The translations under genes were made by a program, and so were the position numbers. A model generated the notes under the pieces. It saw only the letters and a list, made by a program, of their open reading frames with translations. It was not told the DNA's origin and did not search any database. A stretch of 51,491 bases of DNA, the filler included, from Sphacelaria rigidula (lineage: Eukaryota), in the NCBI GenBank assembly GCA_964200075.2. It is 2 parts of 2 records of this genome, joined end to end, with 100 filler letters (N's around TTAATTAATTAA, not from the genome) between each part and the next. Parts side by side here need not be neighbours in the genome. Positions count along the whole stretch, not along the records: positions 1 to 25,724 come from CAXNAA020000157.1; 1 more part is not named here. One strand, 5' to 3'. Below, piece after piece: positions 4,051-46,000 of the stretch (position 1 is its first letter; each line of letters begins with the position of its first letter).

Positions 4051-4709
4051 AACTGATGCTTTTTTGGCTCATCTACTACAGATAATGGTAACCCAGAGTG
4101 AGTCGAAATGTTTTCGCGCGAAGCGCGATTTTGACCCAGCGTTCGATAATCGCCACTCGGCAAAAATCGAGGACTCACCCGAAATCAGGGAAAACGTCGC
4201 ATTTCGGTGATGCGGGATTTTGGCGTCGGGTTTCCACTTGAAATAATATGCATCAGAGACCCAAAAAGCCTCTCGACGGTTTCCCTTGTATCGGTCGTAG
4301 GAAAGCTCGGATCATCCTCAAACTTGGCACTTTGGAAGAATGCTGGTGCTTGAAATGGGAAAAAAAATCGTCGAAGAATATTTCTTGAAGTATATCCGCG
4401 CTCTCTACCGGCTTGCAGGGGTCCCAGCATGAAGACCCCCAGAAGACGATGCAGATTAACTCACAAAAAAACTCGTCCTGAGCTTGTCCAAGGAAAGTTT
4501 GTACAAAGTATCGTTGCGTGAGTAAAAAAGCTGATTCCAAACGGTCGATGCAAGCTGAAGTCGATAATGACGCTAGAAAGCACCTGGGTGATAAATAAAG
4601 TGATGGATTGCTCAAAGAGCTCACTTCATCAGTCTTGAGCCTTGAAATACAGCTGACAAACAGGACGTCTTCAGCTCTGTGGCGGCATTACACGGGTGTA
4701 AATCATAGC

Positions 4710-7700
4710 ATGAGCAGGAAAATGCGAGGTAGGCACGTGGTGCCAGCAGCAGCTGTTGTTCTCTGTTTGACGTGGGGTCCTTGCGCGATTTTAGCCTTTG
4801 TACGACCACTCATACATCGGGATGTCAACGTAGGCCTACGGTTTAGTTCACAGCACGAAAGCGTCACCGAAAGTGCTACTACTGCTCCTGGAGTGCGGGT
4901 GTCAAGATCTGGCCTCTCTCCTGATTTGCAGTGGATCACAGATCCATGGGACAGAGGGGTCCTGTTCTCGGTGAAAGTGGACAGCATTGTTCACGATGCA
5001 AGGAGCAAGTTTCAGCGCATTCAGGTGCGGACCGCAGAACGGTACAGCGCTGATCATTCTGACTGTGCTATTAATACCTAACAATCACACCTTCAAAGAC
5101 ATGTATGTACAGCAAGTCACCGATCATCAGCAATGGGATCATGCGATTGCTATTAGACTATTGCTTTGTACAGTAATCTTCGGCAGTCACAAGAGAAATA
5201 GTTTAGAGAGAGGTGATGTAACCCTGGGATACTTTTTTTTGCGCCCAAAGAGTGTGTTGCTGGGGCCCGCCGTCGCGTTGGATGACGAAAATATCGACCG
5301 TGATTCATGAAACGCATCCCAGGACAAAGTGATTGGACCCAATTGGGCCGCGTCCGACCTGGAGTGTCGGATACTGTTGTATCGGGTGTCGCAATATCTT
5401 GGTAGATGTAGCAGATAAAAAACGATCGCACCTGCATACTCGGTTGCATCCTGCGCCATATCGTCACATGCCAGCGATTGCGCACGCAACCAAGGCAGCA
5501 TGCGCACAGAACACATATGCTCACTTGCGCTTGAGGTACGTGCATTCGCCGAAGATTCGCCCGCAATATCAGTCACTGCGACGGTGGTCTGCTGAAACCT
5601 ACTCACTTGTCCCATCTATCCGAAAGATCCCATTAACAGGCGGAAAATTCTGAGAAAGCATCGAGACTCGATTAGACATGATAGTATCTTACTCGCGTTG
5701 GACGTCAGTGGGTGCGAGCCATGGGCCTTGTTGCGACTGCGCTGGGGCAAATTCTCCTGCGCTCTGTTCTTGACTCGGGCAGTTGACGCAATTTTTTGTG
5801 AGCCGTTCCGGCCGGTAGTCAGCGCAGAGCATTGAGTATTTATTTGCGCCCTACTAAAAGTGCCGTGGACCATCAAGAGCATCAGGTACAACAGCAGCAT
5901 CATGATTGTAGTGCAGTAAATTCAGAACAGAACAGGTCATGGTTTTGATTGATCCCTCTGACAAACAGATTCGTTACGTCAGGTATTTGCGGGTAGAATA
6001 TTCCGCAAGTCGCGTGAAATATACTCGCAGCGTCCTATAAAACGCGACCGTCGTGTGGCAGTAGCGATGGCGTCGGTGAACCTCCGCTGTCGTGGCGAGG
6101 GTACAATGATGGCAGCGCCCGACGTTGTCTCATAATCTGCTTAAAAAAATTTGGTGCCCAACTATACTCGAAATTTTTGTCGCCTCTCGTCGAGTATTTT
6201 GTTTGACGTTTGCATGATTTTGCGTGCGATTTGCGGCGCAGAGGATGGTTGCACCCGGTTGTAACTAAACCTGTCACGACATGGGAGGTAGCGAGAACAA
6301 ATCACCGCGCGGTGTTTTAGAACAGCTGGACACCATAGTCATTGGCAGTTTCGAGGGTGCGCTCGCAGCCTCGGCGACAGAATGAAGCCTGATGCGTCCA
6401 ATTCGAACAGTGTGCTGTGAGATTCGGTGAAGTGAAGGGAATTCATCAAGCCGATTCAATTATCAATTATGAGTTAACGGATCTACATCACGTCATCCAG
6501 TCAAGCACACATATTGATATCGCGATGGAAGTCGCTGCGTCCGCGATGTTTGACACCGAGTTAGCACCCCAGCAGTGCAGCTGTAGATGTTGTTGGAATT
6601 TCCACTGAGCCGGATCCCTAGCACGCACGAGTGAGATTGATAGTCGGGTCCTGACGTATCCTGACTTTACTACGGGATCTGACACTGTATCCCTCACCAC
6701 TCTGACTGCCGCAGTACACGGTTAGCTGAAGCTTACCCCACGTTTACACGTCCACACCGTCTCCGCCATTAACATCTGTGAACCAGCCTTCAGTGTGCTA
6801 CGGTGTAGTGGGCCCCTAACAACTCTATGCTGCACGCGATGTGTGCAGTGTACACAGTCAGTGTTGACGGAAAGCTACGTGGTACTCGTACAGAGAAGAT
6901 TGGTTGTAGCACGAGTGATTTTGGCTGAGTATTGAGTTTGCCGCATTGCTCAAGCGACAACAGTTCCAAGTGTGACCCCAATGTTACGTGTGTGCTTCCT
7001 GGCATAACGAGACAGCTCGGTCCCTTCAAATTCCAAAAACGAGTTTCCCATTTGACATCTAGTCGGCTCACTTTTCCTGCAGCCAGCTCGTTCCTAGCTC
7101 TTCGAGCGTAGCCGCCACGACCCGTCGGTCTTACTGGCCACTCAAAGCTGAACAAAATCACGAGGCGCCCCCTCGAGTCTCTACAGCTAGGCGGCGCATC
7201 CACCAAGGAAAATTCCTACACTCGAATGGCGCGTCGGTTTTTTCCATGCTCATCACACGAGCACCCCTGAGCCACACGAGGCGTCGGTATTTCGACATGA
7301 ACAAGTTGACACAAAGAGAAGAGATTGGCGCTCGCTGATGTGATCTGGTTATATGTTACCCTGTATGATTTTGCTACCAAGTACATATCGTATGTACTTG
7401 CCTAGTGCATCGATGGCGGTGACCGGTTGTTGCTCGGATCCTCTTCTGCACCTCTCGCCGAACCCGTTGGGCGCCGGCCGACACATGGACGCCGGAATAT
7501 GACTCTCAATTTTCAAGTGAACGTGATGCCGATTCAACAGATGGACACATTCGGACAGCCAAAGAATCAACACCACATGTATTTTTTGTTCATTGTTGTC
7601 TCTTGTGCGTAAAGTAGGTGCTTGATACTCCGGCAATGGGTCGCATGCTGGTCCTTGACAACGCGCTGCAGTGCGCCGAGAGGGACGAGGCTGGATATCA

Positions 7701-10700
7701 CGAGATGATCACCCATGTTCCACTCTGCAGAAAAGGCGCCGCAGATCACGCGGAAAAGCGAGCTTTGGTCATCGGGGGGGGAGACGGCGGGGCAGCTAGA
7801 GAGATTCTACGGCACGAGGATATCGTAGCCGTGGATCTTGTCGACATCGACGCCGAGGTACGACAGGCAGTCCATGGGGTGAACATATCCTAGAGGGCGT
7901 TCCAATACCAGTTTTACTGTCTTGTTTGTCCAGGTGGTGGGCATAGCGCTTGATATAGTAGACAAAAAACTGCACTTTCGTCACAGAATTTACTTGTCAG
8001 CTCAGCACCAACATACTGTCACGATGGTAGCTGAACGCCAATGCTAGTAGAGCAGGAGAAGTGCGAAGGCCGCAGGGCCAGTGACTGTGAACTTCTGGTG
8101 AGAAGTGGTCACTGCTGCTCAGTCTCGTAAGATGTGTCGTTTATCCCTCGAGCCCCTGCACTGTGAAGATTTACTCCAAAGCCCGACTCACGATATGCTT
8201 ACTTGACGTTTGGTTTCTGTTGTACGCACGCGCAGGTGATGGCAGCATCGAAGAAATTTATTCCTGGCGTTTGGAGACACCCCAGTTCCACAGAAGATCT
8301 CCATGTGCCGCTCGAAAGCGATCCTCGACTCACGGTGCGCGCAGAGGACGGCGTTGCATTCCTCGCCGACGAAGATAGAGAAGGCTACGACCTGATTGTA
8401 GTCGATGCGAGCGACCCCGTCGGCCCCGGAGCAGCACTGTACAGCGACGACTTTTACGCGCTGCTGAGGCGTCGCCTCAAGCCCAAGGGCGCCGTGGCTG
8501 TCCAGGGGGGCTCGTTCTGGTACTTGCCGATGGTGTTTCGGACGGTTTTCCATGGGCTGAAGAAGGCGTTTCCGACAGTGCGACCGTTGCAGTGGTGGGT
8601 TTCTTAGCGTCCCATTTCGCGGACATCATTCATGTCATGTGCTTGTGCGTAGGTGGTGGGCCCGTTTGTTATGAGCGAGCGCTTGAGCTATCGTGTGGTT
8701 CGATGGGCGAAACTGGGCGGGGCTACGCCGTGTTTTTCTTGGTGAGCGAGAGCTGATACATCTTTTCGTTTGCTTTCGTACGGCGGAGGTCAATGTCTTA
8801 CGAGCTGCATGTTTAGGTTGAACCATTTAGTCGCGAAAATATTTCCGTACTCCTTTTTGCTGTTTGCAAAAGGAAAATGTTGGAATTGGGGTCGGCTCAA
8901 CTTTCCTCCTGCCGTACGATAGAGTATCTCAAGCGCCATCTGTTTTTTTCTCGTTCTTGTTTCCACCATGTCACGCCTCCATAACGCACAGTTTTACCGC
9001 GGTATATCCAGGTGGCGTGTGGAATCTACAGGTGGCAACACTGGGAGACGATCCACAAGAGGTTGACCTGAAAAAAGCGGAAGACTTGAGCAAGAGGTGA
9101 TATTTCTTACGAAGTTTTACTAGCGGAAAATGCGGAAATAGCGACAATAGCGAATACGTGTTTGAACGAAGAGAAAAAGACGCGCCCAAGCATTTGCGTT
9201 CGCGATTTTAGTGTACAGTGCCCACAGCACGTGCTCACTGTCGTCGCAAGGTCGAACTGTGCCGGAGCATGAGTGTGCTCAGGCATCGCAACAAACCCCA
9301 AGACGTTCATCTCTGCGCGGCCATGTGTCCCTCTCCCCTGGAAATACAGGCACTCTCTTATGTTGTATGATGGCTCTGGTCATCAGGCATCGTTTGTCTT
9401 GCCCCCTGTCGCTCTACGGGAGCTGGATAAGCCCCGCCCTTCGTTGAGAGATACAACTGCTGATCTTGAAGAGATAATGGCCTATGGCGAGGAGGAACAA
9501 CCCAATAACTCGATCGAGACGGGAATTTCAAGCAATCGGTGGGAACCTGACGTAAGTCTTGGTGCCCTTTTTCGGAGCGGTGCAAATGCATGCCAGGGCT
9601 TCGTATCTCTCGTTACTTTGGATCAGTGATGACTCGGGGATGTTGAAACTGTGACCATGAATACTTGCACGATATCGTATTCGATACGCTGGACCCATTC
9701 ATATCCAGAAACGAATCAATTATTTGCTTGAGACTGACGTTTTAGTACGTCTTATGTTTTCATATCGTCCTTCTGCTTTGGGATGGCGCTGTGTACGCAT
9801 ACGCAGGTTTGGCGATCCATCAGTCGCTTGGTGAGCGGCGATACTTCAACAGCCAGCGCTCAGGAGCAAGGACGCCCGCCAGTTGCAGCGTTCGATGCAG
9901 ACGGTACTCTATGGGATGGGGACGCCGCAGAGATCTTTTTGGCGTGGATGCAGGCAGGAAATCGCTGGAGCCAGCACGGAGACTTTGTCTCGAAGTGAGT
10001 TTCAAAGAACGCTCCCATTGTTTTTGGATGGCTGCTGTTGGATTATATTTAGATATGAACAAATATATACTCAACAAGATGAATGCTTGATTTGATTCAC
10101 CAGAGTCCTCTCGCTACAGTACCTTGACCAGGCGACTAGCCGTTTAGTAGAAGGTTACACATGTTTGTGAATCTTTGATATGGCAACACATGGCTGTACG
10201 CGACATCTGTGCGCTCGACTAGAGCCCTAAGAGCTGCAATCCGATTAGCTCAGCTCGTACCGCTTGTGTACGACACGACACAAGGATCGATAGTAGAATG
10301 TACTACTCACGACGGGAAAAACCTCTGCTGTGTGGTGGTGCTCACACAGTCTACCATTGTTCATCAGTCGAGGCGCGACCACGTTGCGTTTCCCTGTTCA
10401 GATACTACTCTTTGCTCGACGAGGGCAAAAAGAAAGTTGCGTACGGATACGTGGCTCAACTGTTCGACGGAATGGACCTAGCTGAGGTGGCTCGTCTTTG
10501 CGAGGAATGCTTCGAAGCCAACGTGGAGAATCTGGTGAGAACCTGCGAGTCGCGGAACCGAACACAACACGTGATCATTTTCTCCTCGACCAGAGATGTG
10601 ACTTTTTCTTCGACGGGGTCGTATGTGATGTTTTCTTTCGCGGTGCGGGGTCTGTAACATTCGTGATAACTTTGTCACTGCCATGCCCCAACTTGCCCGT

Positions 10701-11964
10701 TTCAGGATTTTTTTTGCGTACTGCAGCCCCAAACTCTGAAAGTCCGCCCGAAATGTTGCGTGAGTGTTGTACCTCTTTCGCTTGTCGCTCCCTTCGACCA
10801 CATAATTTAAGACTGCCTGCGCTTGAAACGTGCGTTGTGGCAGATTGTCCCTGAAATGAAGGAGTTGGTACAGAACTTGCGTGCTCGAGGGTGGTGTGTG
10901 GTGATTGTTTCTGCCAGCCCCAAGTGGATCGTGGAGCCTGGGGCTCGCCGGTTAGGTCTTGACCCGAAAGATGTCATCGGCGTCGAGGTGCGCCGTCGCT
11001 GATAATATGTTGCCGTTGGAATATGTCCGTCTACAGTTTTTTTCAGAGGTGCGTTACTTCGTAATGACCACCTCGTGCTGCTCGCGTTGATTGCCATTTC
11101 CATTTTGAAGACTTGCCCTACTGCAATGGTTGACTCTGGGTACATTTTTGTGCGGGATGGAGCTGAAGAGCTGGGAAGAGGCGCACCCAGGCGCACTCTA
11201 GGGTGCGTGTAAGTGTATCCTGTGACGTTGATGGGGATGTCCACGTTCCCATTGTTTTGCCAATCGACTGCCCACTGCAGGTCGAGACGTCAGGACAACA
11301 GGCCACTTCCGTTCTCCGACATCCCATGCCACTCCGAGAGGGCAAGGTCGAGTTGTTGAAGGTCAGTGATGAGAGCCGATACGTCCACTACGTGATTTTT
11401 TCCTCCCGTGATGAAGCCCACGGATCCCCGTGGATTGAAGGAGTAGAGAAGGACATGTAGAGCTAGGAGCAGCGGGCACCCGGCACGCTTCAGTGGTGTG
11501 CGTCTTTGGTGCGACGCTTTCGAAACCGAGACGAGAGTTCTTCTCGAGCAAGACGCACGTATTTCAATTGCGTGTACGCGGGTGTTGACAGAATGGTGTA
11601 GGTGTTGGCACTAGGAGAATGCACGCGTTCTACAAATGGTGTACGTATTGACACTACAAGGATGCACGCTTTCTGCGACGCACGTGGAAGGACCCTACCT
11701 GTTTTCCGACGATCGATCACTAGGCTTTTTCCCCACGTGTACGAAGAACACCCACCCACCCGTTGTTGAAATGTTGTCGCAAATACTGATTAGATGGCAT
11801 TCGGCGAAGGGCCGTCTTTTGCGGCTGGAAATTCCCTGGACGACGGCGCGATGCTCGGTTATGCTCGAGGTCTAGCGCTCGTGACGAATCCGAGCTCGTC
11901 GGAGTTGGAGGCTCTTGCGCTCGAAAAGGGCTGGAGCGTTCACCATCTGCGGCAACAGCAGTAA
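4710..11964 (+). CDS. Spermidine-synthase-family aminopropyltransferase fused to a C-terminal HAD-superfamily phosphatase; probable plastid-targeted precursor, 645 aa, 10 exons
   Basis: Exons 4710-5024, 7618-7857, 8236-8594, 8992-9096, 9350-9551, 9807-9994, 10402-10534, 10844-10987, 11281-11361 and 11794-11964 total 1938 nt, with GT-AG boundaries and no internal stop. Aminopropyltransferase motifs: SKFQRIQV, GRMLVLDNALQ, DEAGYHEMITH, ALVIGGGDGG, VDID, DGVAFL, YDLIVVDASDP, LKPKG, VYPGG. HAD motifs: AAFDADGTLW (I), VIVSASP (II), EGK (III), AAGNSLDD (IV). The N-terminus is hydrophobic (VVPAAAVVLCLTWGPCAILA/FVRP). Confidence 0.9.
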
Positions 11965-14900
11965 AGTAGACAAACGACTTGCTAGATGCTCGATGCGTGA
12001 AGCCACATTTTTGTCGACATTTTTTCACCTGTGCATCCAGTGTGTTTTTAGGGACTTCGAGGGCTTTTTCGTTGCATTCGCGCACCGCCGCGTACGGCCG
12101 CGAAACGTCCATTGTTTCGAGAAATAGGGGAAAAAAGTACTCGCAGTTTTCCCATGGACCAATATTCACTTGAAGTTCCCCTGAAGGGGTCTGTGTGCAA
12201 AAGTCCTGTCGAAGGCTCCGGCAACCAGGGTCTACCAAGAGAAGCAGTAGGAACTGTTCGATTATCATTGTATTATGGTTGTCATCACGTGGCTGAGTCC
12301 TCGCCACCATCTAGGCTGTCGTTCAGTCGTATGGTGGCAGAAGTTCGCAGGAATTTTGTGTTCTCCTCAAGCGCATTTTTGTCTGTTCTGCATGACGCCG
12401 ATTTCTACATTTCTGTTGTCGCGTGCTTGTTCCCCAGGTCCATTGCATTCTAGTCAGGTTTTGCAATGGAAGGTTGCAGAAGTGAAGCGTTGATTCGGTT
12501 CAGTGAATTGTTTTGATGAAGGTCGCAGAGATCGCAGCAATTCACGTTATAGCTGTGCTCCTGTGGTCAATGGGTGTCCACGCGTGCATGAGGAGATTGT
12601 GGAAGGCTCTGTGTCATACATTGTTAACCGGGCTTGAGCGTGAACGTCATTCGCGTATGTGTAGTGGTTGAGTGTTCGAAGATTGATGTACAACGTTTCT
12701 GCCAACCGTGCTTGCTGATTGTAGGTTTGTCACATGCACCCAGATGGCGACACGGTACTCGCGAAGATTTGTAAGTGACGATGCTCACCCACGAGCGGTC
12801 AAATACACACTACAGGTGACGCCCACTCTACTACTACGTTACCGTTGTGTGAGGCGGGTCGCTAAAGCGGGTGGTCGTAAATTGACCTGCTGCGCAGATC
12901 ACGCCAAGTGCAGTTACAGAACGATCTCATCATCTCAGTCGGTGACTTGATCACGGTTGCGCCGAGTTTGTGTTAACGGAAGTCCACTCTCGCTCCAAAC
13001 ATGAGCCCAGTCCGCTCTTATCCACCACGGACTCTGTCCTGGCGTCTTCGCGAAGTGGTCCATCCATAGAATTGCGCAGTAGTGCCCAAATAGCAAGAGT
13101 CTACCTTACCAGTCTATGCTCACATCCGTCCGACGCGTTGCTTGACTCTGAGCATAGAACGGGGCCGCGAGAGGGAGGCAAGGAGGTGACGATGGGATGG
13201 CACAAGCTTTGGATATTTTAGCTGTAGCGCAAAGAGTGAAAATCGCGGTTACCCCAGTCAACACCGATGGCTGGCAAACTCAGCAACAGCAGCGAAATAC
13301 TGTCTGTAGTACTTGGGCATCTGCCGCGTATATAATCTGCATACTGTTCCAATTTCACGGAGTGAATTTAGTTTATGCTGCAGGTGAAAATTTGACTCAC
13401 CGGTTTTTTGCGACTCGTTTTGCGCTACATTTTTCCACTCTAAAACCCCTTTTGATTTCAGTTTTTGAGGGAAAACTTTGTCAAACAAAACCAAACGCAT
13501 CTTGCTCCAGGGGGGCACGTGGACACAGCAGTTGCTGCTGCCTACCTAGTATCATGTTCCAAATCGAAGTCTCGGGTGAGAACGCCCAGCGTGCAGCCGC
13601 TTGACGCAACCACTGCGTTCTGCCACGGACCCTTCCCCACGTATCCGACAAGGGGGCAACATCCCCGTACAGGCGGTAGCAATGCTAGCGGATCCTACGT
13701 CCTGACAATCTGGCAGCCGGGCAGGTGGTTATGGCAGTGTCCTTCTAGCTATATCAACTTACACTGCACTGGAGCAGAGTTTGAAGGTGAATATTTTGGC
13801 GATTGCCTCACCTGCAGTTCGCCGAGATGTTCCGGATTTTTTCACGATCTCACTGAGTAACATTTCATGTGGAAATGTACCATACCCTGCATTACTGTGT
13901 ATGTGGAAATGTACCAGACTCTGGACAAAGATTTCTACAGTCAGTACGAACACGATGTTAAGAGTGTACTGCGCACAGTGTGTTGCGTGTGTTGTCGTCC
14001 CATCTATTCTGGACGCCGGTCTCCACCTTTCGGTATATGTGGGTGCACCAGCCGGGGTCACACAGGAGGAAAGTCAACACAGGAGTTTGTTTTTGTGTGT
14101 TTAGTTTAGTTCTCCACCTTCCTTCTGCGGTGTTTCCCTCTCTTTTTTATCGCGAGAGGGGTTCAGCAGTCCCTTTCCCTCGTCGACCGTTAGGTCGAAT
14201 TTCTTGCGCAGTATAGAATATGTTGCCGACTGTAATTTGTGTAAAAACACTGCGTACTTGAAGGGGGGGTTGCTGTGACACGCGGGAGTGCTCCAGGGAG
14301 CAGAGAGGTTCATCACCTCATGGCACAGAAATAAAGAGGAGGCCAGGTGGCTACGTGCGATTGGACGGGAGACCAACGAAGCCCATATAACACAGCAACG
14401 ACGACGGTCCAGAGAAGGGGGGGGTGGGGGGTGAACCCCCTCCGATGAGGAGTGCCGTTATGTCATGCAGTGCTTATCTTGATACACCTTGTATGCTTGT
14501 ACGTATGGCTGTCCCTCGAGAGGTCGAAAGATGGAACCTTGCGATTCTTAGTCCTTTGGTTGGTGGTATTTGGGGCCTTGAGTCTCGCCCGTAGTCGGAC
14601 CCTATGTTCATTTCTACTTGGTCTCGCGCGTCGAGTTGGAAAGCCGGGTGCCACCCCCTGAAGTCCGAATGGCCACCTGCGGCACCGGATCTTCTGAGGT
14701 TAGTCATATGTATTCTCTTTCTTCTTTTTTAGTTATCCCTGTTTTGCTCGTATCGCGTTTTGTGAGTTTTAATCTAGGTCCATATTGTTTTTTATTTTTG
14801 TTTTATATTATGTGGAGGTCGTGAGACTCCCGGTGACGGTAGAAACCGTCGAAGGTGGCCGATGATTTCCCTCGGGTTATGTAGTCAAGGATTGACCGTA

Positions 14901-16934: not shown

Positions 16935-17366
16935 TCATCTCGCTGTGTCCTGAGTGTCACGTTGCTCCCTCCACGGTAGCAGGTTCCCCTCTCGCATAAA
17001 ACTGCTAGCTCGACTTCTAACAGCGGCTAAAGTCATCTCGGGTGTGAACAACGTCCTACCGACAGCGAAACTTGTCACGCCGGCGCTGGAAAACGTTTTC
17101 AAATCAGCAACTTCCACACCCCCTGCTACAATCACGGGTACGCTAGAAGAAACGTCAACAATTTTATGTACGGTAGTCGGGGGTATTGTGCACGCGGGGA
17201 ACACTTTTAAGATGTCGCCTCCGGCTGCAATAGCCGCGATTGCCTGGGCCTCAGTGGCCACCCCCGGTATGCTTAGCATTCCCCATTCCTTGGTGCGCCG
17301 AACTACAGCTGAATCCAAGGACATGCTGCTGACAAACTTTGCTCCGCACTTGAAGGCGGTATCCAC
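16935..17366 (-). CDS. Terminal exon of a KDPG/KDPGal (Eda/DgoA-like) class I aldolase; 5' exons unresolved, possibly a pseudogene
   Basis: Acceptor atag|GTG at 17366. Translation VDTAFKCGAKFVSS...VVRRTKEWGMLSIPGVATEAQAIAAIAAGGDILKVFPA...VPVIVAGGV...TFSSAGVTSFAVGRTLF matches the C-terminal two-thirds of the KDPG aldolase barrel, including the Schiff-base Lys in LKVFPA. A candidate upstream exon start (cag|G at 17551) gives CSEFTVTLDS, but no GAGTV motif was found. Confidence 0.75.
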   Translation of the reverse strand: MDTAFKCGAKFVSSMSLDSAVVRRTKEWGMLSIPGVATEAQAIAAIAAGGDILKVFPACTIPPTTVHKIVDVSSSVPVIVAGGVEVADLKTFSSAGVTSFAVGRTLFTPEMTLAAVRSRASSFMREGNLLPWREQRDTQDTAR

Positions 17367-23300: not shown

Positions 23301-24548
23301 GTGAATCAGTTCGTGGAACTCCCTGCCTTGCGGTTGCAGAAGAAGGTCAAGTCTATGCAGATGTTCCGCAAGCCGGTCACCGTCGCTAGGTAAGAAATTC
23401 GCCTCAAAGGGACTCGCCATCTCCCGGTGGTGTGGGGGTGAATATCTGCTCTCTTGCTGAAATGCAACAACGTGGGCCCCGCTGCGAATTATCCAGGGCA
23501 GGCGATCGCGTGGGGATATGCTTGAGCGGCCTCGATGCGAAGTTGCTGGAGCGAGGTGTTGCCGCTGCTCCTGGTTCTATACGGCCAGTCACTGCTGCAG
23601 TTGCCCTTGTTCGCAAGGTACGATGACACTGGGTCTTGATCAATATCTAACTCTAGAGGCGAAGGACTACTCTTTGCAAACATGCCCAATGTTTGTAAGC
23701 CTCAGCGGCTTGGGTTCACGCAGAAGTGCTCTGATACACTGCCGTTGTGTTTTCTGTTATTGGATCGTTCGCTGCAGGTGTCCGTGTTCAGTGGTCTCTG
23801 TCGCAGTGGTGCTTACTACCATGTGTCCTTGGGCCATGCCACCGCCATGGCCACGGTAACCTTCTTTGGGGCGGAGGAGCTGAAGAACGGGTGGCGGGCT
23901 CTGATCGAAGCGGACACCAAGAATAACCACTCGCTAGTGGCCGAAGGCTGGGAGGAAGTTTGGTCTCTGGATGACATGGCCAGCTTACCATTTCCTTGGG
24001 GCGCAGAATTTGCCCAGCAATCAGAGCTTCTTGGGCAAGCTCGAGTTAACTCCGAAGGCTCAGTGGCCCTTGGTCGTGGGCAATCAGAAGGTCACGCGAG
24101 CCCTCTTCAGTACTGTCTTCTACAATTCCACAGCCCCGTCATAACACCTCCAAGCAGCGTCGTGCTGGGTAGCAGGCTGGACAGTATGGCGTCGGGTGCC
24201 GGGAGCGGGAGCACCCATGCAGATAGCAGCGATTACTTGGCAGGCGCGGGCGAGGCAAACTGCCGGATTGCTTTTTATGGTCGTTTGGTGGGAGGAGCTG
24301 TCGACGACGGGAGCAAGCGCACAAGGCCATCTGATGCAGACGGGGGGCTCGGTTTTGGGACGGAGGCAGGTCAACTCAAGCTGTTCAACGAGAAGGTCAA
24401 GACGGGATGTGTTTTTCGTGTAGGAGGCGGAAGTGGAACGGCGGAGCGGGGCGTCGGTGAGGGCTCAACGCTTGAAGTGTACGGAAAGGATCTGTTCAAG
24501 AAGGAGACCAACATGTCACCATTTGTGGGTATGCTCGTGCAAACAGAG
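20341..24548 (+). CDS. EEFSEC: Selenocysteine-specific translation elongation factor (eEFSec/SelB), 3'-incomplete
   Basis: Exons 20341-20454, 21232-21336, 21864-21942, 22178-22284, 22563-22645, 22814-23177, 23301-23389, 23497-23617 and 23778-24548 give 611 codons in frame. Motifs: NVGVLGHVDCGKT, LSTASLDKNPQSRERGITLDLGFS, VDCPGHASLIRTIIGGAQILD, NKID, FDHCF, VKSMQMF, GDRVG, YHVSLGH, GSRLD, CRIAFYG, LFKKET. The exon with the end of domain 4 was not found before the gap. Confidence 0.95.
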
Positions 24549-25176
24549 GTAAGAAGTATGTCTTGCAGTTGTGCTCCGCATTGTGGTACTACTGCTCATT
24601 CTACGGCACAGTTGGGGGTGCGAATCGGGGGGGTGTTGGCCTCCGAAGTGTGTTCGGGCTGTTCGACAACATTTCTCCCACCATAGACATATCATTTTTT
24701 CTTCCGTTTTTCCGATATGTGTTGACTCGATTTTAGATTGCATCGTTTTGATGGGACGTGCATGAATCGAGGCTACGCCCTCCCTATTCTGAGGGTGCAG
24801 ACGTCTCCTCACCGCTGACAGAGAGGGAGCTATAACCTCTTTTATCGAACCATTTCAAAGCGTACCCTCAAAACCTCAAATATCAATCATTATCCGGTTT
24901 ATGACGTGAGCGCGTGCTGTGCGATGACAAGGAGGTCATAGGCCTGCATTGGCATGTAAAGCACACAACGCAATAAACCTTGAACGAATCGCACACGTCG
25001 CCGAGAAGCGTTGGTTAGGCGAAGTCGACACCTCGCAGGATGCTCGCGCCCAACCCGCTGGCCTCAATAAAACCACATGAAAAAAACATAGACGATAGGG
25101 GGCTAGAGGAAACGTCGGACGAGAGGTCTTGGCCGGAGTAACTGTGTCTTGCTACGTGCGTGTGTCCATATATTGT

Positions 25177-43099: not shown

Positions 43100-46000
43100 G
43101 AGCTGTCACCGCGTGTGCCATCTTTAGCCATCATTATGTCCTCATCTTCTTCCCTTGTGGGGCAGTCTTTCAACTTGTGTCCTTTCTCACCACACTTCAC
43201 GCAATAGCTTTCCGGGCAATCGGTTGCGTAGCGCTAAACCATCTGTTTACGTACCCAATACCTTCGTTTTCCCGGTTCTTCGTCACCTCTGCTTCTCTTA
43301 TCTTCTTTCTTGACATTCTTGATGCGTTTTTTCTACCACCCTTTTTTCGACCGCTCCCTCCCTTGATACAAGTACACCGTGCGGCATTCAGTCCGTTACG
43401 TGACCCCTCCGCCATCAGCAACCGACGTTATGGGGAGGAGGGGTCACGTGAAGGACAGCACGCCGTGACAGATGCGGGAGCAGAAGAAACGGTCCCTGCA
43501 TCAACCGACCGAGAGGTCAGATCCGGCCGGACAGGAGGAGCCAGGCCGGTCCACGAAGAACCCACGACAACTGTGGGGGATGTTTCGCCCGATAGCACTA
43601 CCGGCGAGGCTCGGAAAACCTCGAGACACGTGACTCTGGGGTTGACCAACGCACCACGTTTGTAGAAACTGAGTTTTGATGGTCTTGACGAGAGTTGGCA
43701 GATGTTCTGTGGCGATTTTGTGAAGCAGATAGAGGCGATGGGCATGCTGGAGGTGTTGAGTGACTGACGTAGAGAGAGATCAGTCGAGAGATCAACGTGC
43801 ATCAGGCCAGTGAACAACGGATGGCTGTACAGGGATTGGACAGTACCGAAACAATCATGTTCAAAACTGTTTGGGCGACGCTAATCAACTCTATTAGCGG
43901 TGAGGCCACGAGGCAACTCGTGAACTCAAGCCAGGGATCAGAAAAAGCAAGGAAGGCGTTGCAGGTACGTACAAGTCCGGGGCGCCGTTTTTCCCATAAC
44001 CTCGTGCAAGATGTACAACCAGAAGTGTTGGGTAGGGGATGCAAGTCGAGTCGCGCCAATCGATCGGGCTGCGCCAGAGTCGGAAATTTGCCAGTGTCAG
44101 CAAAGAGTTGGTCAAGATTCCTTTCATCAATCTCTGTGAGAACGCTGATCTTGGAGAGTACTGCTGTGATGGTGATTTTCCTGCTTGGAAGGAGCTCGTT
44201 GTTCCGTTGTTAAGCGGAGCTGATCGTCTCACAGAGCAGGCCTCAGTCTCAGCCGTGCAGGTGGGCTCACCGTATCAGAAAAGACGGGCCCATGTGGTCG
44301 CCTTGAAAACTAAGGGTCGGAGAAGGGCAACTGCGAGCGTGGAAGCAGCGATTGGAAGCGTACGCCGTTGCCTGCCCCACGTTGGGTCAGCTATTACGGT
44401 GGGCAGGTACCTATTTTCTGGAGCCGACGGGACAGGTCAAAGCGATTCACACCTTCGAGGATTCGTTGTCCAGGTGATCTCGTTCTCGGCTGACGAAAGG
44501 GAAACCAAGGCGGGGAGAATTGAGGCCTCACAAGGCGGACGCAGGGGGATGGGAGGAAGCAATCGAGCTGGAAAAAGTCGATATTGTGAGAGTCGCTACA
44601 ACTCTCGACTGCTACGAGACACCGCTGACGGTTAATAACGACGCCATGCCGGAGATCGTAGCGAATTTCGTTCACGCATGGATGAGTAAGGCGGTTTTAT
44701 CCAGTTTGGAAGGGGAAAGTGTGCTGAGCCCGACTCAGCTTCAGGGCGAGGATGATGATACGAGCATGCTCGTTGCGATGTGGCCTCGTGACGAAGCAGA
44801 ATAATCAGAGGCTTGGGGAGTCGCCGTAACTCGTTCGTCGGTTCAAGAGGCAAAGCAAAAGCCGGACCAAGACCCCGGTGGTGGGAAGGTTTCAACCGGG
44901 GAGCCACGGATGCCGGGTAAAGGTGACCCCAGACCGTTCTCGATCAGGCGAGAGCGATCTTGATGGATAAGCCGCGATTAGTTCTGCTTTAAGAGCGGGA
45001 ATCGCGGCTTGGGCTCATGAGGGATAGGTTACTGGAGGAAGACCGGAATAAAGGAACCGGTAAAAGGCAGGAAGCGTACGCTTTAGATGATAATCCTTTA
45101 CGGTATACGTCACCGAGAGCGCCAGCTAGGTCAGTTGTTTCACGCAGCCTGGTGCCTGGTTTGCTGGCGCTGGTGCACACTACGTGCGGGCACGCCGGAG
45201 TGATGAGGACGGCTGCAGCAGTGAACGCAAGCGGTGAGTGGCTCGGTCTTTTCGCCGACACTCCCAAATACGTGTTGTCTTGTGGTTATCGCCGGCGCAA
45301 GCATACTAACAGCCACACCATAGCGATGCAACCGGCCCGCTTCTTGCTGCCCTGGGAGGTGATAGAGATGGGCATATCTGACATGAAGCAGGTTTCTACC
45401 GCGGGTAATCGATACTTATTAGTCGTTTTGGGTCGGGCGACCAAGTTTCTCTTTGCTTTCCCACTAGCAGGTCACCAAAGCCGTAGCCAAGTGTCTGCTT
45501 AAGCTCTTCTTGACGTTCGGAGTAGCCCATTTCCTTAGAACTGACGTTGGGGGGGAGTTCACTTCGTAAGTAGTCAAGCATGTATGCCAGTGGATGATGT
45601 GAAACTCGATCATGGTCCAGTAGACCACCCTCGCGGTCAGGGCGCGGTGGAAAGATACGGAGGGCGGTTACACGGTGCCTTCGCCGAGTTACGCAGGCAG
45701 TGGCCGGAAAGGTGGGACGAGTATGTGGATTCCGCGATTTGGATTCGTCGTACTATTCCCAATCCGTCACTGCCTAATAACCCTACGCCATTTAAGCTGC
45801 TTTTGGGGCGCGAACCTCGCACCCAAGTAGACTCTGTTGTCACCTAAAGCGAAGTCACGACTGTTGAACAACACGGTGGAACAGCAACGACGGTGAGGTT
45901 CAGGAGATACTAGCTCAACGCCATCAGTAAAGGGAAGTGGTGAGATCAGCTAGAAACGCCGAAATGACTCGCCAGTCGGCAAGATCACGAGAACAGGTAG

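Follow-up and report, generated by a model that had tools for sequence, protein, structure and literature searches.

The plus strand of the Sphacelaria rigidula DNA analyzed here carries, at positions 4710-11964, a ten-exon gene in which a polyamine aminopropyltransferase is joined to a phosphatase module of the HAD type. The window, by which we mean the whole stretch analyzed, comprises 51,491 nucleotides of assembly GCA_964200075.2 in two joined parts, the first of which (positions 1-25,724) is from record CAXNAA020000157.1, and all coordinates count along it. The fusion is real, expressed and conserved, and the HAD partner is new among aminopropyltransferase fusion enzymes. As an explanation of the data as a whole we favor, with reasonable confidence, one nuclear brown-alga gene encoding a single bifunctional protein of 645 amino acids (aa).

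Reconstruction of the gene from the sequence yielded ten exons separated by nine introns, all of them GT..AG, and a coding sequence of 1938 nt (645 codons plus TAA) whose frame is unbroken and whose ATG, at 4710, is the first in-frame ATG downstream of an in-frame stop. A preliminary description of this DNA had proposed a ten-exon, 645-aa reading frame with no stop between its two domains, and the rebuilt model bears this out. Four sequencing runs of a single study (X1-X4), available as assemblies and treated as transcript data on a guessed RNA label, contain 0.22-0.25 of the sampled words, where the exon share of the stretch is 0.27; four further sequencing runs contain 0.57-1.00. Compared with 4300-12500, each of X1-X4 holds a single intron-less contig (3334, 2859, 3105, and 3386 nt, respectively) bearing all nine modelled joints, among them 5024/7618 between exons 1 and 2 and 9551/9807 between exons 5 and 6, the joint that the preliminary description had marked as the place to check. 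Introns appear in these runs only as low-depth scraps (depth 2-3). A spliced fused mRNA exists, and other isoforms may exist alongside it, since assemblies of one study establish the existence of the fused form and not its exclusivity. A 31-nt piece of intron 1 (7518-7548) is also matched by a contig in all four runs, with unrelated sequence on either side, and is probably a short repeat common to another transcript.

The boundary between the two modules lies within exon 5 (9350..9551). Its first part (9350..9458) specifies the final helices of the aminopropyltransferase fold, can be aligned with the C-terminal portions of the bacterial proteins P0008 and P0012, and corresponds to helices at 315-333 (predicted local distance difference test, pLDDT, >90) in a structure model of the Ectocarpus orthologue P0001. 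There follow the tail ADLEEIMAYGE (9459..9491), conserved in all fused proteins and aligning with the terminal tail of stand-alone aminopropyltransferases (P0032, P0013, P0012, and L001), and a variable linker (9492..9539) of 16 aa here and 6-16 aa in relatives, which in the P0001 model is the sole internal stretch with pLDDT <50 (356-364). The exon closes with WEPD (9540..9551), the start of the HAD module, which aligns with residues ~5-8 of bacterial HAD proteins (QWSPSV) and with HWPAP of the phosphatase PchP; the Trp-containing helix that opens stand-alone bacterial HAD proteins and PchP aligns with WEPDVWRSISRL. Exon 5 had been described in its entirety as an acidic linker; the 16-residue linker does lie in it, and the remainder belongs to the two modules, as the final aminopropyltransferase helices and tail and the WEPD of the HAD module. 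Because the end of the first module and the first residues of the second are encoded by one exon, the fusion cannot be a mis-join of two adjacent genes.

The N-terminal module (~aa 70-387) is a complete polyamine aminopropyltransferase of the type that uses decarboxylated S-adenosylmethionine (dcSAM), with a spermidine-synthase fold and an activity predicted from sequence and model. The rest of exon 1 after the predicted signal peptide (4797..5024) encodes Phe30, a Ser/Thr/Arg-rich stretch resembling a transit peptide, and the start of Spermine_synt_N, and exon 2 (7618..7857) encodes the end of that domain, the YHEM motif and the GGGDGG dcSAM loop, with Asp161 at 7783-7785. Exon 3 (8236..8594), whose product is 85% identical to Ectocarpus P0001, contributes the aminopropyltransferase core, a clade-specific WRHP insertion and DASDP (D242 at 8404-8406, D245 at 8413-8415); exon 4 (8992..9096), placed by alignment and by the joints in the contigs, supplies the YPGG strand and the next part of the fold. 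Scanned exon by exon, PF17284 (Spermine_synt_N) falls on exons 1-2 (aa 74-105, E 3.5e-5; 24.1 bits on exon 1 against a cut-off of 22.1) and PF01564 (Spermine_synth, cut-off 22.9) on exon 2 (E 5.6e-16, 59.1 bits) and exon 3 (E 4e-17, 62.8 bits); exons 4, 5, 9, and 10, too short or too divergent when scanned singly, gave no Pfam match. The orthologue P0001 exceeds the gathering scores of both families (PF01564 140.8 bits, PF17284 53.9 bits), while missing the cut-off of TIGR00417 (220.2 against 249.55). The GGGDGG Asp, the DxSDP pair, YHEM, and YP, said in the preliminary description to be retained, are all present, and Asp161, D242, and D245 are kept in every aligned relative; we take the roles of these three residues to be those known from spermidine synthases. 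The five fused database proteins described below show no variation in the catalytic motifs of either half, and S. rigidula has all of these motifs.

For structural comparison we used an AlphaFold2 model of P0001, which is 80% identical to the S. rigidula protein in the aminopropyltransferase half. Built on a 52-row alignment, the model has a pLDDT of 88.8 and a predicted template modelling score (pTM) of 0.74, falling below pLDDT 50 only at 1-22, 356-364, and 605-612; it supersedes an earlier model from a 5-row alignment (pLDDT 61.7, pTM 0.45), for which Foldseek listed spermidine synthases only. In a search against 48,161 PDB representatives, the best match of the aminopropyltransferase half was 6qmm (Z 37.8, root-mean-square deviation 1.8, 279 aa), followed by 1uir (Z 36.1), 2e5w (Z 36.0), and the human (Z 33.7), B. 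subtilis (Z 33.4) and E. coli (Z 30.6) enzymes. These top matches are spermidine synthases or broad polyamine aminopropyltransferases, and human spermine synthase scored Z 23.0. By sequence, the relative P0012 likewise matches the spermidine synthase 1iy9 best (E 1.5e-46), with a weaker match to thermospermine synthase (6e-32).

A quick tree of 52 aminopropyltransferase rows places the brown-alga rows, P0007, P0013, P0032, and P0038 in a clade of ten eukaryote-like rows (support 99), whose nearest neighbours are bacterial enzymes fused to S-adenosylmethionine decarboxylase (AdoMetDC), with weak support (85). The WRHP...PL insertion and the replacement of Glu by Asp in VDLVDID, both traits of the clade, are common to these bacterial AdoMetDC-fused enzymes, which have been shown to yield spermidine and spermine (PMC12803844; here and for the other PMC articles cited, statements refer to their accessible passages) and norspermidine (PMC6356823, citing Green et al., 2011). 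In brown seaweeds, putrescine, spermidine, and spermine have been reported, in some of them together with norspermidine and norspermine (PMC4316711). From the likeness to spermidine synthases and to the polyamine-making bacterial fusions, we infer that the acceptor is an ordinary diamine or polyamine, with a spermidine-, norspermidine- or spermine-type product and release of methylthioadenosine. Within the wider group, P0039 (588 aa) has two aminopropyltransferase domains in tandem; because the second has a degenerate GNGGGG loop and lacks D-x-x-D-P, the two look by their sequence like an active-plus-inactive pair.

Residues 404-645 form the C-terminal module, a complete phosphomonoesterase of subfamily HAD-IB with an Asp nucleophile, the Asp+2 general acid and a C1 cap, its activity again being a prediction. 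Exon 6 (9807..9994) encodes the N-terminal helix, motif I DADGT (D437 at 9894-9896, D439, T441) and, after it, W443, D446, E449, and the start of the cap; exon 7 (10402..10534) the helical C1-type cap, in which Tyr471 is equivalent to PchP Tyr83; exon 8 (10844..10987) the end of the cap and motif II IVSASP (S537); exon 9 (11281..11361) a beta-hairpin and motif III K584; and exon 10 (11794..11964) motif IV GNSLDD (D605, D606), a C-terminal strand and helix and the stop codon TAA (11962-11964). In the P0001 model, five helices between 407 and 488 form the C1 cap between motifs I and II. PF12710 (cut-off 27) scores 75-89 bits; exon by exon, it matches exon 8 (E 3.2e-8, 34.7 bits) and, weakly, exon 6 (E 0.024). 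Orthologues also pass the HAD-IB model TIGR01488 (cut-off 45) with 51.3 (P0001), 49.1 (P0003), and 47.0 (P0007) bits. The preliminary description had read four HAD motifs in a IB arrangement, and this assignment holds. A 72-row alignment of the family shows D397, D399, G400, T401, W403, D406, K544, G562, and D567 (Ectocarpus numbering) to be invariant; a combined 119-row alignment misaligned the HAD-only rows (14-20% identity) and was not used.

Among enzymes of known function, PchP of Pseudomonas aeruginosa is the best match of the HAD half both by family profile and by structure. The profile's best PDB sequence is PchP 4as2 (E 6.9e-21, chain 3-291, N-terminal helix included), followed by 4gxt, 4ovy, and 3fvv, all of unassigned function, and then by SerB at ~1e-10. 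By structure, PchP 4as2 scores Z 24.7 (root-mean-square deviation 2.5, 235 aa, 24% identity), 3fvv Z 24.5, 4ovy Z 23.9, and 4gxt Z 21.9, ahead of human phosphoserine phosphatase (PSP; Z 16.9), MtnX 2fea (Z 14.9, 10% identity), and ThrH (Z 14.2). The best-scoring subfamily model, TIGR01490 (HAD-SF-IB-hyp1), stayed below its cut-off of 98.3 with 77.5, 66.9, and 57.6 bits for P0001, P0003, and P0007, and the HAD-type histidinol-phosphatase model NF052360 (PA0335 type, cut-off 280) only 50.8, 48.6, and 35.5 bits. SerB TIGR00338 (cut-off 144) gave P0001 only 16.4 bits, and SerB/PSP structures scored Z 15-17; the MtnX models TIGR03333 and TIGR01489 had no match at E<=0.01 on P0001, P0003 or P0007. 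The C-terminal partner is thus best described as PchP-like, not MtnX- or SerB-like.

PchP hydrolyses phosphorylcholine, phosphorylethanolamine, and p-nitrophenyl phosphate, and in it the alkylammonium group of the substrate is acted on by E42, E43, and Y82-Y84 (PMC3170909). In a HMMER alignment, PchP D40 corresponds to the invariant D446, E43 to E449, and Y83 to Y471, the last two being at least 90% conserved in the 72 rows; one of the three PchP tyrosines (Y82-Y84) is retained. The next-best characterised family is modelled on PA0335, whose substrate is also an amino-alcohol phosphate (PMC12220765). The relationship to PchP, the conserved E449 and Y471, and the chemistry of PA0335 together led us to propose, tentatively and with less than even confidence, that the HAD substrate is a phosphomonoester with an ammonium group close by, for example phosphoethanolamine, phosphocholine or some other phosphate of an amino-alcohol.

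To assess the distribution of the architecture, exon 3 was used as a query among longer proteins, giving 31 matches from 449 candidates. Five of the 31 carry both Spermine_synth and HAD: Ectocarpus sp. 13 P0001 (612 aa), a partial Hapterophycus protein (580 aa), Scytosiphon P0003 (674 aa), Discosporangium P0004 (734 aa), and the JGI protein P0007 (564 aa), while four are bacterial AdoMetDC-aminopropyltransferase fusions. Public databases name the fused proteins "unnamed protein product" or "spermidine synthase". The preliminary description had named orthologues consistently split into two genes as a finding that would refute the fusion; the fusion is kept in all five of these relatives, and, as judged from their sequences, conservation of the architecture runs across brown algae and extends to one more distant protein, P0007. 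The partial Choristocarpus model P0005 comprises the aminopropyltransferase only and ends in the conserved tail. The P0004 model has ~90 extra residues between ...DVIGVEV and VDVTSG, at the position of the S. rigidula exon 8/9 intron, probably an intron retained in the annotation. Identity of the S. rigidula protein in the aminopropyltransferase and HAD halves, respectively, is 80% and 67% to P0001, 76% and 57% to P0004, and 64% and 42% to P0007, such that among brown algae the HAD half diverges faster (57-67% identity, against 76-81% for the aminopropyltransferase half).

A profile of the five fused proteins, run against 1.84 billion cluster representatives, gave 12,353 matches. Among the best 150 of these, only P0007 spans both modules, seven are HAD-only, and the rest are aminopropyltransferase-only or fragments; a single both-module cluster among the best 150 of 12,353 indicates that the architecture is rare and narrowly distributed. 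A word-based search with the Ectocarpus HAD part returned only three fused proteins, and P0007 as a query against metagenome contigs found 11 loci, all aminopropyltransferase-only (37-41% identity), with neither the contig of P0007 itself nor another fused locus among them. Stand-alone eukaryote-like modules exist for both halves (aminopropyltransferase P0013 and P0032; HAD P0044 and P0200).

Discosporangium and Choristocarpus are among the earliest-branching brown algae; if this placement is right, the fusion is older than the brown-alga crown group. Trees of the HAD half group the six fused rows in a single supported clade (96/85) with P0044 and with P0043 of Phaeothamnion, a HAD-only partial model on a 2-kb contig, and the neighbour of this clade is a small bacterial group. 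Monophyly of the six fused HAD rows with P0043 and P0044 excluded is not rejected by the approximately unbiased test (p 0.32), and a single origin of the fusion is possible on these sequences. In the simplest history, two bacterial-type genes would have been gained in separate events and joined a single time, in an ochrophyte from which brown algae descend.

We also asked whether the two modules are already partners in bacteria, and found no sign of it. The closest genomic bacterial aminopropyltransferase, in a Myxococcales metagenome-assembled genome (57% identity), is stand-alone and has unrelated neighbours. Of the 301 Myxococcota genomes searched, a HAD homologue (E<=1e-20) is present in 33 and an aminopropyltransferase (E<=1e-30) in 34, seven of which have a member of the close aminopropyltransferase clade (E<=1e-75); a HAD homologue occurs with any aminopropyltransferase in one genome (G108). 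A Pfam scan around 14 Myxococcota HAD loci found no polyamine family among 99 crude open reading frames (ORFs), of which 22 had a Pfam match; the HAD gene itself was recovered in only three of the 14 loci, making this a weak test. In three of these 14 loci (L037, L042, and L045) a Peptidase_S58 gene (DmpA-type aminopeptidase) is found no more than a few kb from the HAD homologue, and in L037, L042, and L044 a LuxR-type response regulator is near the homologue; the recurrence of these neighbours may reflect kinship of the genomes.

The N-terminus of the S. rigidula protein resembles a targeting signal. The start codon and predicted signal peptide (aa 1-29, 4710..4796) comprise, by eye and by hydropathy (Kyte-Doolittle mean 2.14 over aa 16-30), a basic n-region and a hydrophobic stretch ending in ILA, followed by Phe30 and the Ser/Thr/Arg-rich region. 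Like N-termini are found in Scytosiphon P0003 (...ATA, then F), in Discosporangium P0004 (...SRC, then F), and in the unfused relative P0013. The ASAFAP motif is the signal pattern of heterokont plastid proteins (PMC4329603; PMC2567999), and by analogy with motifs of this type cleavage is predicted before Phe30. Going by sequence, the N-terminus is probably a heterokont bipartite plastid signal, though with appreciable room for doubt. P0013, P0032, and P0038, unfused proteins of the same eukaryote-like clade, also begin with a signal peptide or membrane anchor, and the whole clade may work within secretory or plastid compartments.

The two modules, each with its termini intact, are joined head to tail by the short variable linker, and in the model that we favor both activities would serve one amine-metabolic context in which the phosphatase supplies or processes an amine. 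Direct two-step action on one molecule is an unlikely extension of this model; a complex prediction of P0001 30-356 with 366-612 returned a score of 0.00 and no answer, and speaks neither for nor against contact between the domains. Several observations weigh against the favored model. The transcript runs are assemblies of a single study with a guessed RNA status. The NCBIfam equivalog PRK00811 (cut-off 260) was narrowly missed by the orthologues scanned (P0001 251.5, P0007 257.9). Identity to PchP is only 24%, the large PchP insertions are absent (235 of 327 residues align), PchP E42 is replaced by Ala448, and the scores of 3fvv, 4ovy, and 4gxt are close to that of PchP. Although it starts with Met, the Ectocarpus model P0001 has no signal peptide, leaving the signal in three of the four Met-starting models. 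By tblastn, a HAD homologue was in the flanks of none of 26 bacterial or metagenomic aminopropyltransferase loci, and an aminopropyltransferase or AdoMetDC near none of 34 Myxococcota HAD loci, and a HAD homologue co-occurred with a close-clade aminopropyltransferase in none of the seven Myxococcota genomes that have the latter. The substrates of both halves are, moreover, deduced from sequence and model.

The lack of any bacterial co-occurrence or neighbourhood would be expected if the fusion were one of convenience, in which two enzymes of unrelated pathways have only a promoter and a plastid-targeting peptide in common, e.g., spermidine synthase alongside a phosphoethanolamine-, phosphocholine- or phosphoserine-type phosphatase. 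The short, variable linker of low model confidence, the faster evolution of the HAD half and the stand-alone forms of both modules fit this explanation as well. Stable enzyme fusions, however, as a rule join steps of one pathway, and this one has been retained from Discosporangium to Ectocarpales and in the distant P0007, which makes us regard such an arrangement as rather improbable. A closer coupling was suggested in the preliminary description, namely that a phosphorylated amine such as phosphoethanolamine is aminopropylated and afterwards dephosphorylated by the HAD half, which would yield a new aminopropylated amino-alcohol. The conservation of both halves together in one polypeptide, the phosphocholine and phosphoethanolamine hydrolysis of the nearest characterised HAD relative, and the conserved equivalents of E43 and Y83 of the PchP alkylammonium site speak for this proposal. 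The second acidic residue of spermidine synthase, however, contacts the distal ammonium of the diamine, a site at which a phosphate would sit badly. The acidic pair of DASDP is kept, the module is closest to ordinary spermidine synthases and to the polyamine-making AdoMetDC fusions (PMC12803844), and the modules neither co-occur nor adjoin in the bacteria searched; we thus consider this two-step route quite unlikely. The same low probability attaches to a channelled plastid enzyme that aminopropylates either the phosphorylated amino-alcohol or the amino-alcohol freed by the PchP-like half.

The preliminary description had offered, as a further possibility, coupling to methylthioadenosine salvage through an MtnX-like phosphatase. 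Aminopropyltransferases do release methylthioadenosine and MtnX is also a HAD-IB enzyme (PMC6302742), so that the HAD half might recycle the by-product of its partner. In the family, however, the MtnX models have no match on the fused proteins at E<=0.01, the single match being of TIGR01489 to the stand-alone P0044 (13.3 bits against a cut-off of 81.55), MtnX 2fea lies far below PchP in the structural comparison (Z 14.9 against 24.7), and MtnX partners the RuBisCO-like MtnW, MtnC being the enzyme used by most organisms (PMC6302742). The proposal is not upheld, and we regard it as very unlikely. Equally doubtful is a non-catalytic HAD half serving the polyamine synthase as a regulatory, ligand-sensing or oligomerisation domain. 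There is precedent in human spermine synthase, which retains an inactive AdoMetDC-like domain for dimerisation (PMC12803844), and in the second, inhibitory alkylammonium site of PchP (PMC3170909), but every fused protein keeps the full catalytic set (the nucleophile Asp, Asp+2 and Thr of motif I, Ser/Thr of motif II, Lys of motif III, and the two Asp of motif IV), and the two motif I Asp, the Thr, the Lys, and the last Asp do not vary in any of the 72 family rows. An annotation artefact, with two adjacent genes read as one, could be suspected from partial or split-looking models such as Choristocarpus P0005 (aminopropyltransferase only) and Phaeothamnion P0043 (HAD only), both flagged as partial. 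It is extremely unlikely given one contig across all exons in each of the four runs, a continuous frame, a module junction inside exon 5, and the same fusion in four independently annotated brown-alga genomes.

Full-text literature searches returned no paper describing an aminopropyltransferase-HAD architecture, and the preliminary description likewise knew of no described HAD fusion. AdoMetDC-aminopropyltransferase fusion enzymes are reportedly the subject of work by Green et al. and by Michael, both of 2011, and a mention of the architecture there is possible. The accessible passages of a 2025 survey of eukaryotic aminopropyltransferases mention no brown algae, HAD or phosphatase, and state that many diatom aminopropyltransferase fusion proteins still need study (PMC12803844). 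The Phaeoexplorer preprint treats composite genes generally and does not mention spermidine; its supplements listing composite genes may mention the family.

Among known systems, the bacterial AdoMetDC-aminopropyltransferase fusions are similar in belonging to the same sub-clade, with 49-54% identity to P0008, the WRHP insertion, and a neighbouring position in the tree, and, like their diatom counterparts, in joining a polyamine aminopropyltransferase to a second enzyme; delta-proteobacterial AdoMetDC-spermine synthase fusions have also been described (PMC12803844). In those proteins AdoMetDC is N-terminal, whereas in the brown alga the HAD-IB phosphatase is C-terminal and Pfam scans detect no AdoMetDC domain. 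With stand-alone spermidine synthases (SpeE/SPDS; Synechococcus 6qmm, B. subtilis 1iy9, human 2o06) the protein shares the fold, the N-terminal beta-hairpin tetramerisation domain, GGGDGG with its Asp, D-x-S-D-P, YHE, and YPGG, but it differs in the WRHP...PL loop, the Asp for Glu in the VDLVDID ribose-binding strand, the conserved extra C-terminal tail, the predicted targeting peptide, and the fused HAD module. PchP (4as2) has in common with the second module the N-terminal Trp helix, DxDxT, the C1 cap and the D40/E43/Y83 equivalents; unlike it, PchP is a stand-alone secreted bacterial enzyme with large insertions and Glu at position 42 (Ala in the brown alga). Profile and fold assign to the family of the S. 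rigidula HAD half (31-38% identity to it) the structures 3fvv (Bordetella), 4ovy (Planctomyces), and 4gxt (Anaerococcus), with Z 21.9-24.5, and the ~247-aa "HAD family hydrolases" found in Bdellovibrio, Silvibacterium, and Myxococcota; these proteins are stand-alone and uncharacterised, and none was found beside polyamine genes. The basidiomycete spermidine synthase-saccharopine reductase also has an N-terminal aminopropyltransferase and a C-terminal second enzyme (PMC12803844), with another partner in another lineage and nothing to suggest common descent.

The fusion gene is flanked by untranslated regions. The 5' untranslated region extends over at least 4632..4709, the longest transcript-like contig beginning at 4632, with no in-frame ATG between the in-frame stop and 4710, and the 3' untranslated region over 11965..12500 and beyond, since the contigs reach 12500 and carry ~820-900 further bases. 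Ten ORFs in intron 1, the untranslated regions and the flank of the gene have no Pfam match. Outside the gene, 81 ORFs of at least 105 aa were scanned across the window, of which three had a Pfam match, none polyamine-related. A 348-aa open frame at 23640-24683 (+) resembles the selenocysteine-specific elongation factor of eukaryotes in its domains III and IV (PF21208 E 4e-14, PF21131 E 7e-5), which places an eEFSec gene ~12 kb downstream of the fusion gene. The frame at 16938-17366 (-) matches KDPG/KHG aldolase PF01081 (E 6.7e-8) and is probably one exon of a minus-strand gene, and that at 44993-45499 (+), with a weak, below-cut-off match to the integrase zinc-binding family H2C2 PF17921 (E 6e-5), may be a retrotransposon remnant.

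A review of seaweed polyamines states, in its accessible passages, that molecular information on brown-alga polyamine enzymes was unavailable (PMC4316711). For unusual polyamine chemistry in stramenopiles, the chief hint comes from aminopropyltransferase fusions, whose partners known so far are AdoMetDC or others. The gene described here is a handle on a large, uncharacterised bacterial HAD-IB family (3fvv, 4ovy, and the Bdellovibrio and Myxococcota proteins). Were the channelled reading, which we have judged quite unlikely, to be true, an aminopropyl-amino-alcohol made in the plastid would represent a class of polyamine-like metabolite not described so far. The conserved, expressed fusion points to a link, absent from the pathway maps that could be found, of polyamine synthesis in brown algae, probably in the plastid, with a metabolite that is phosphorylated and probably cationic.

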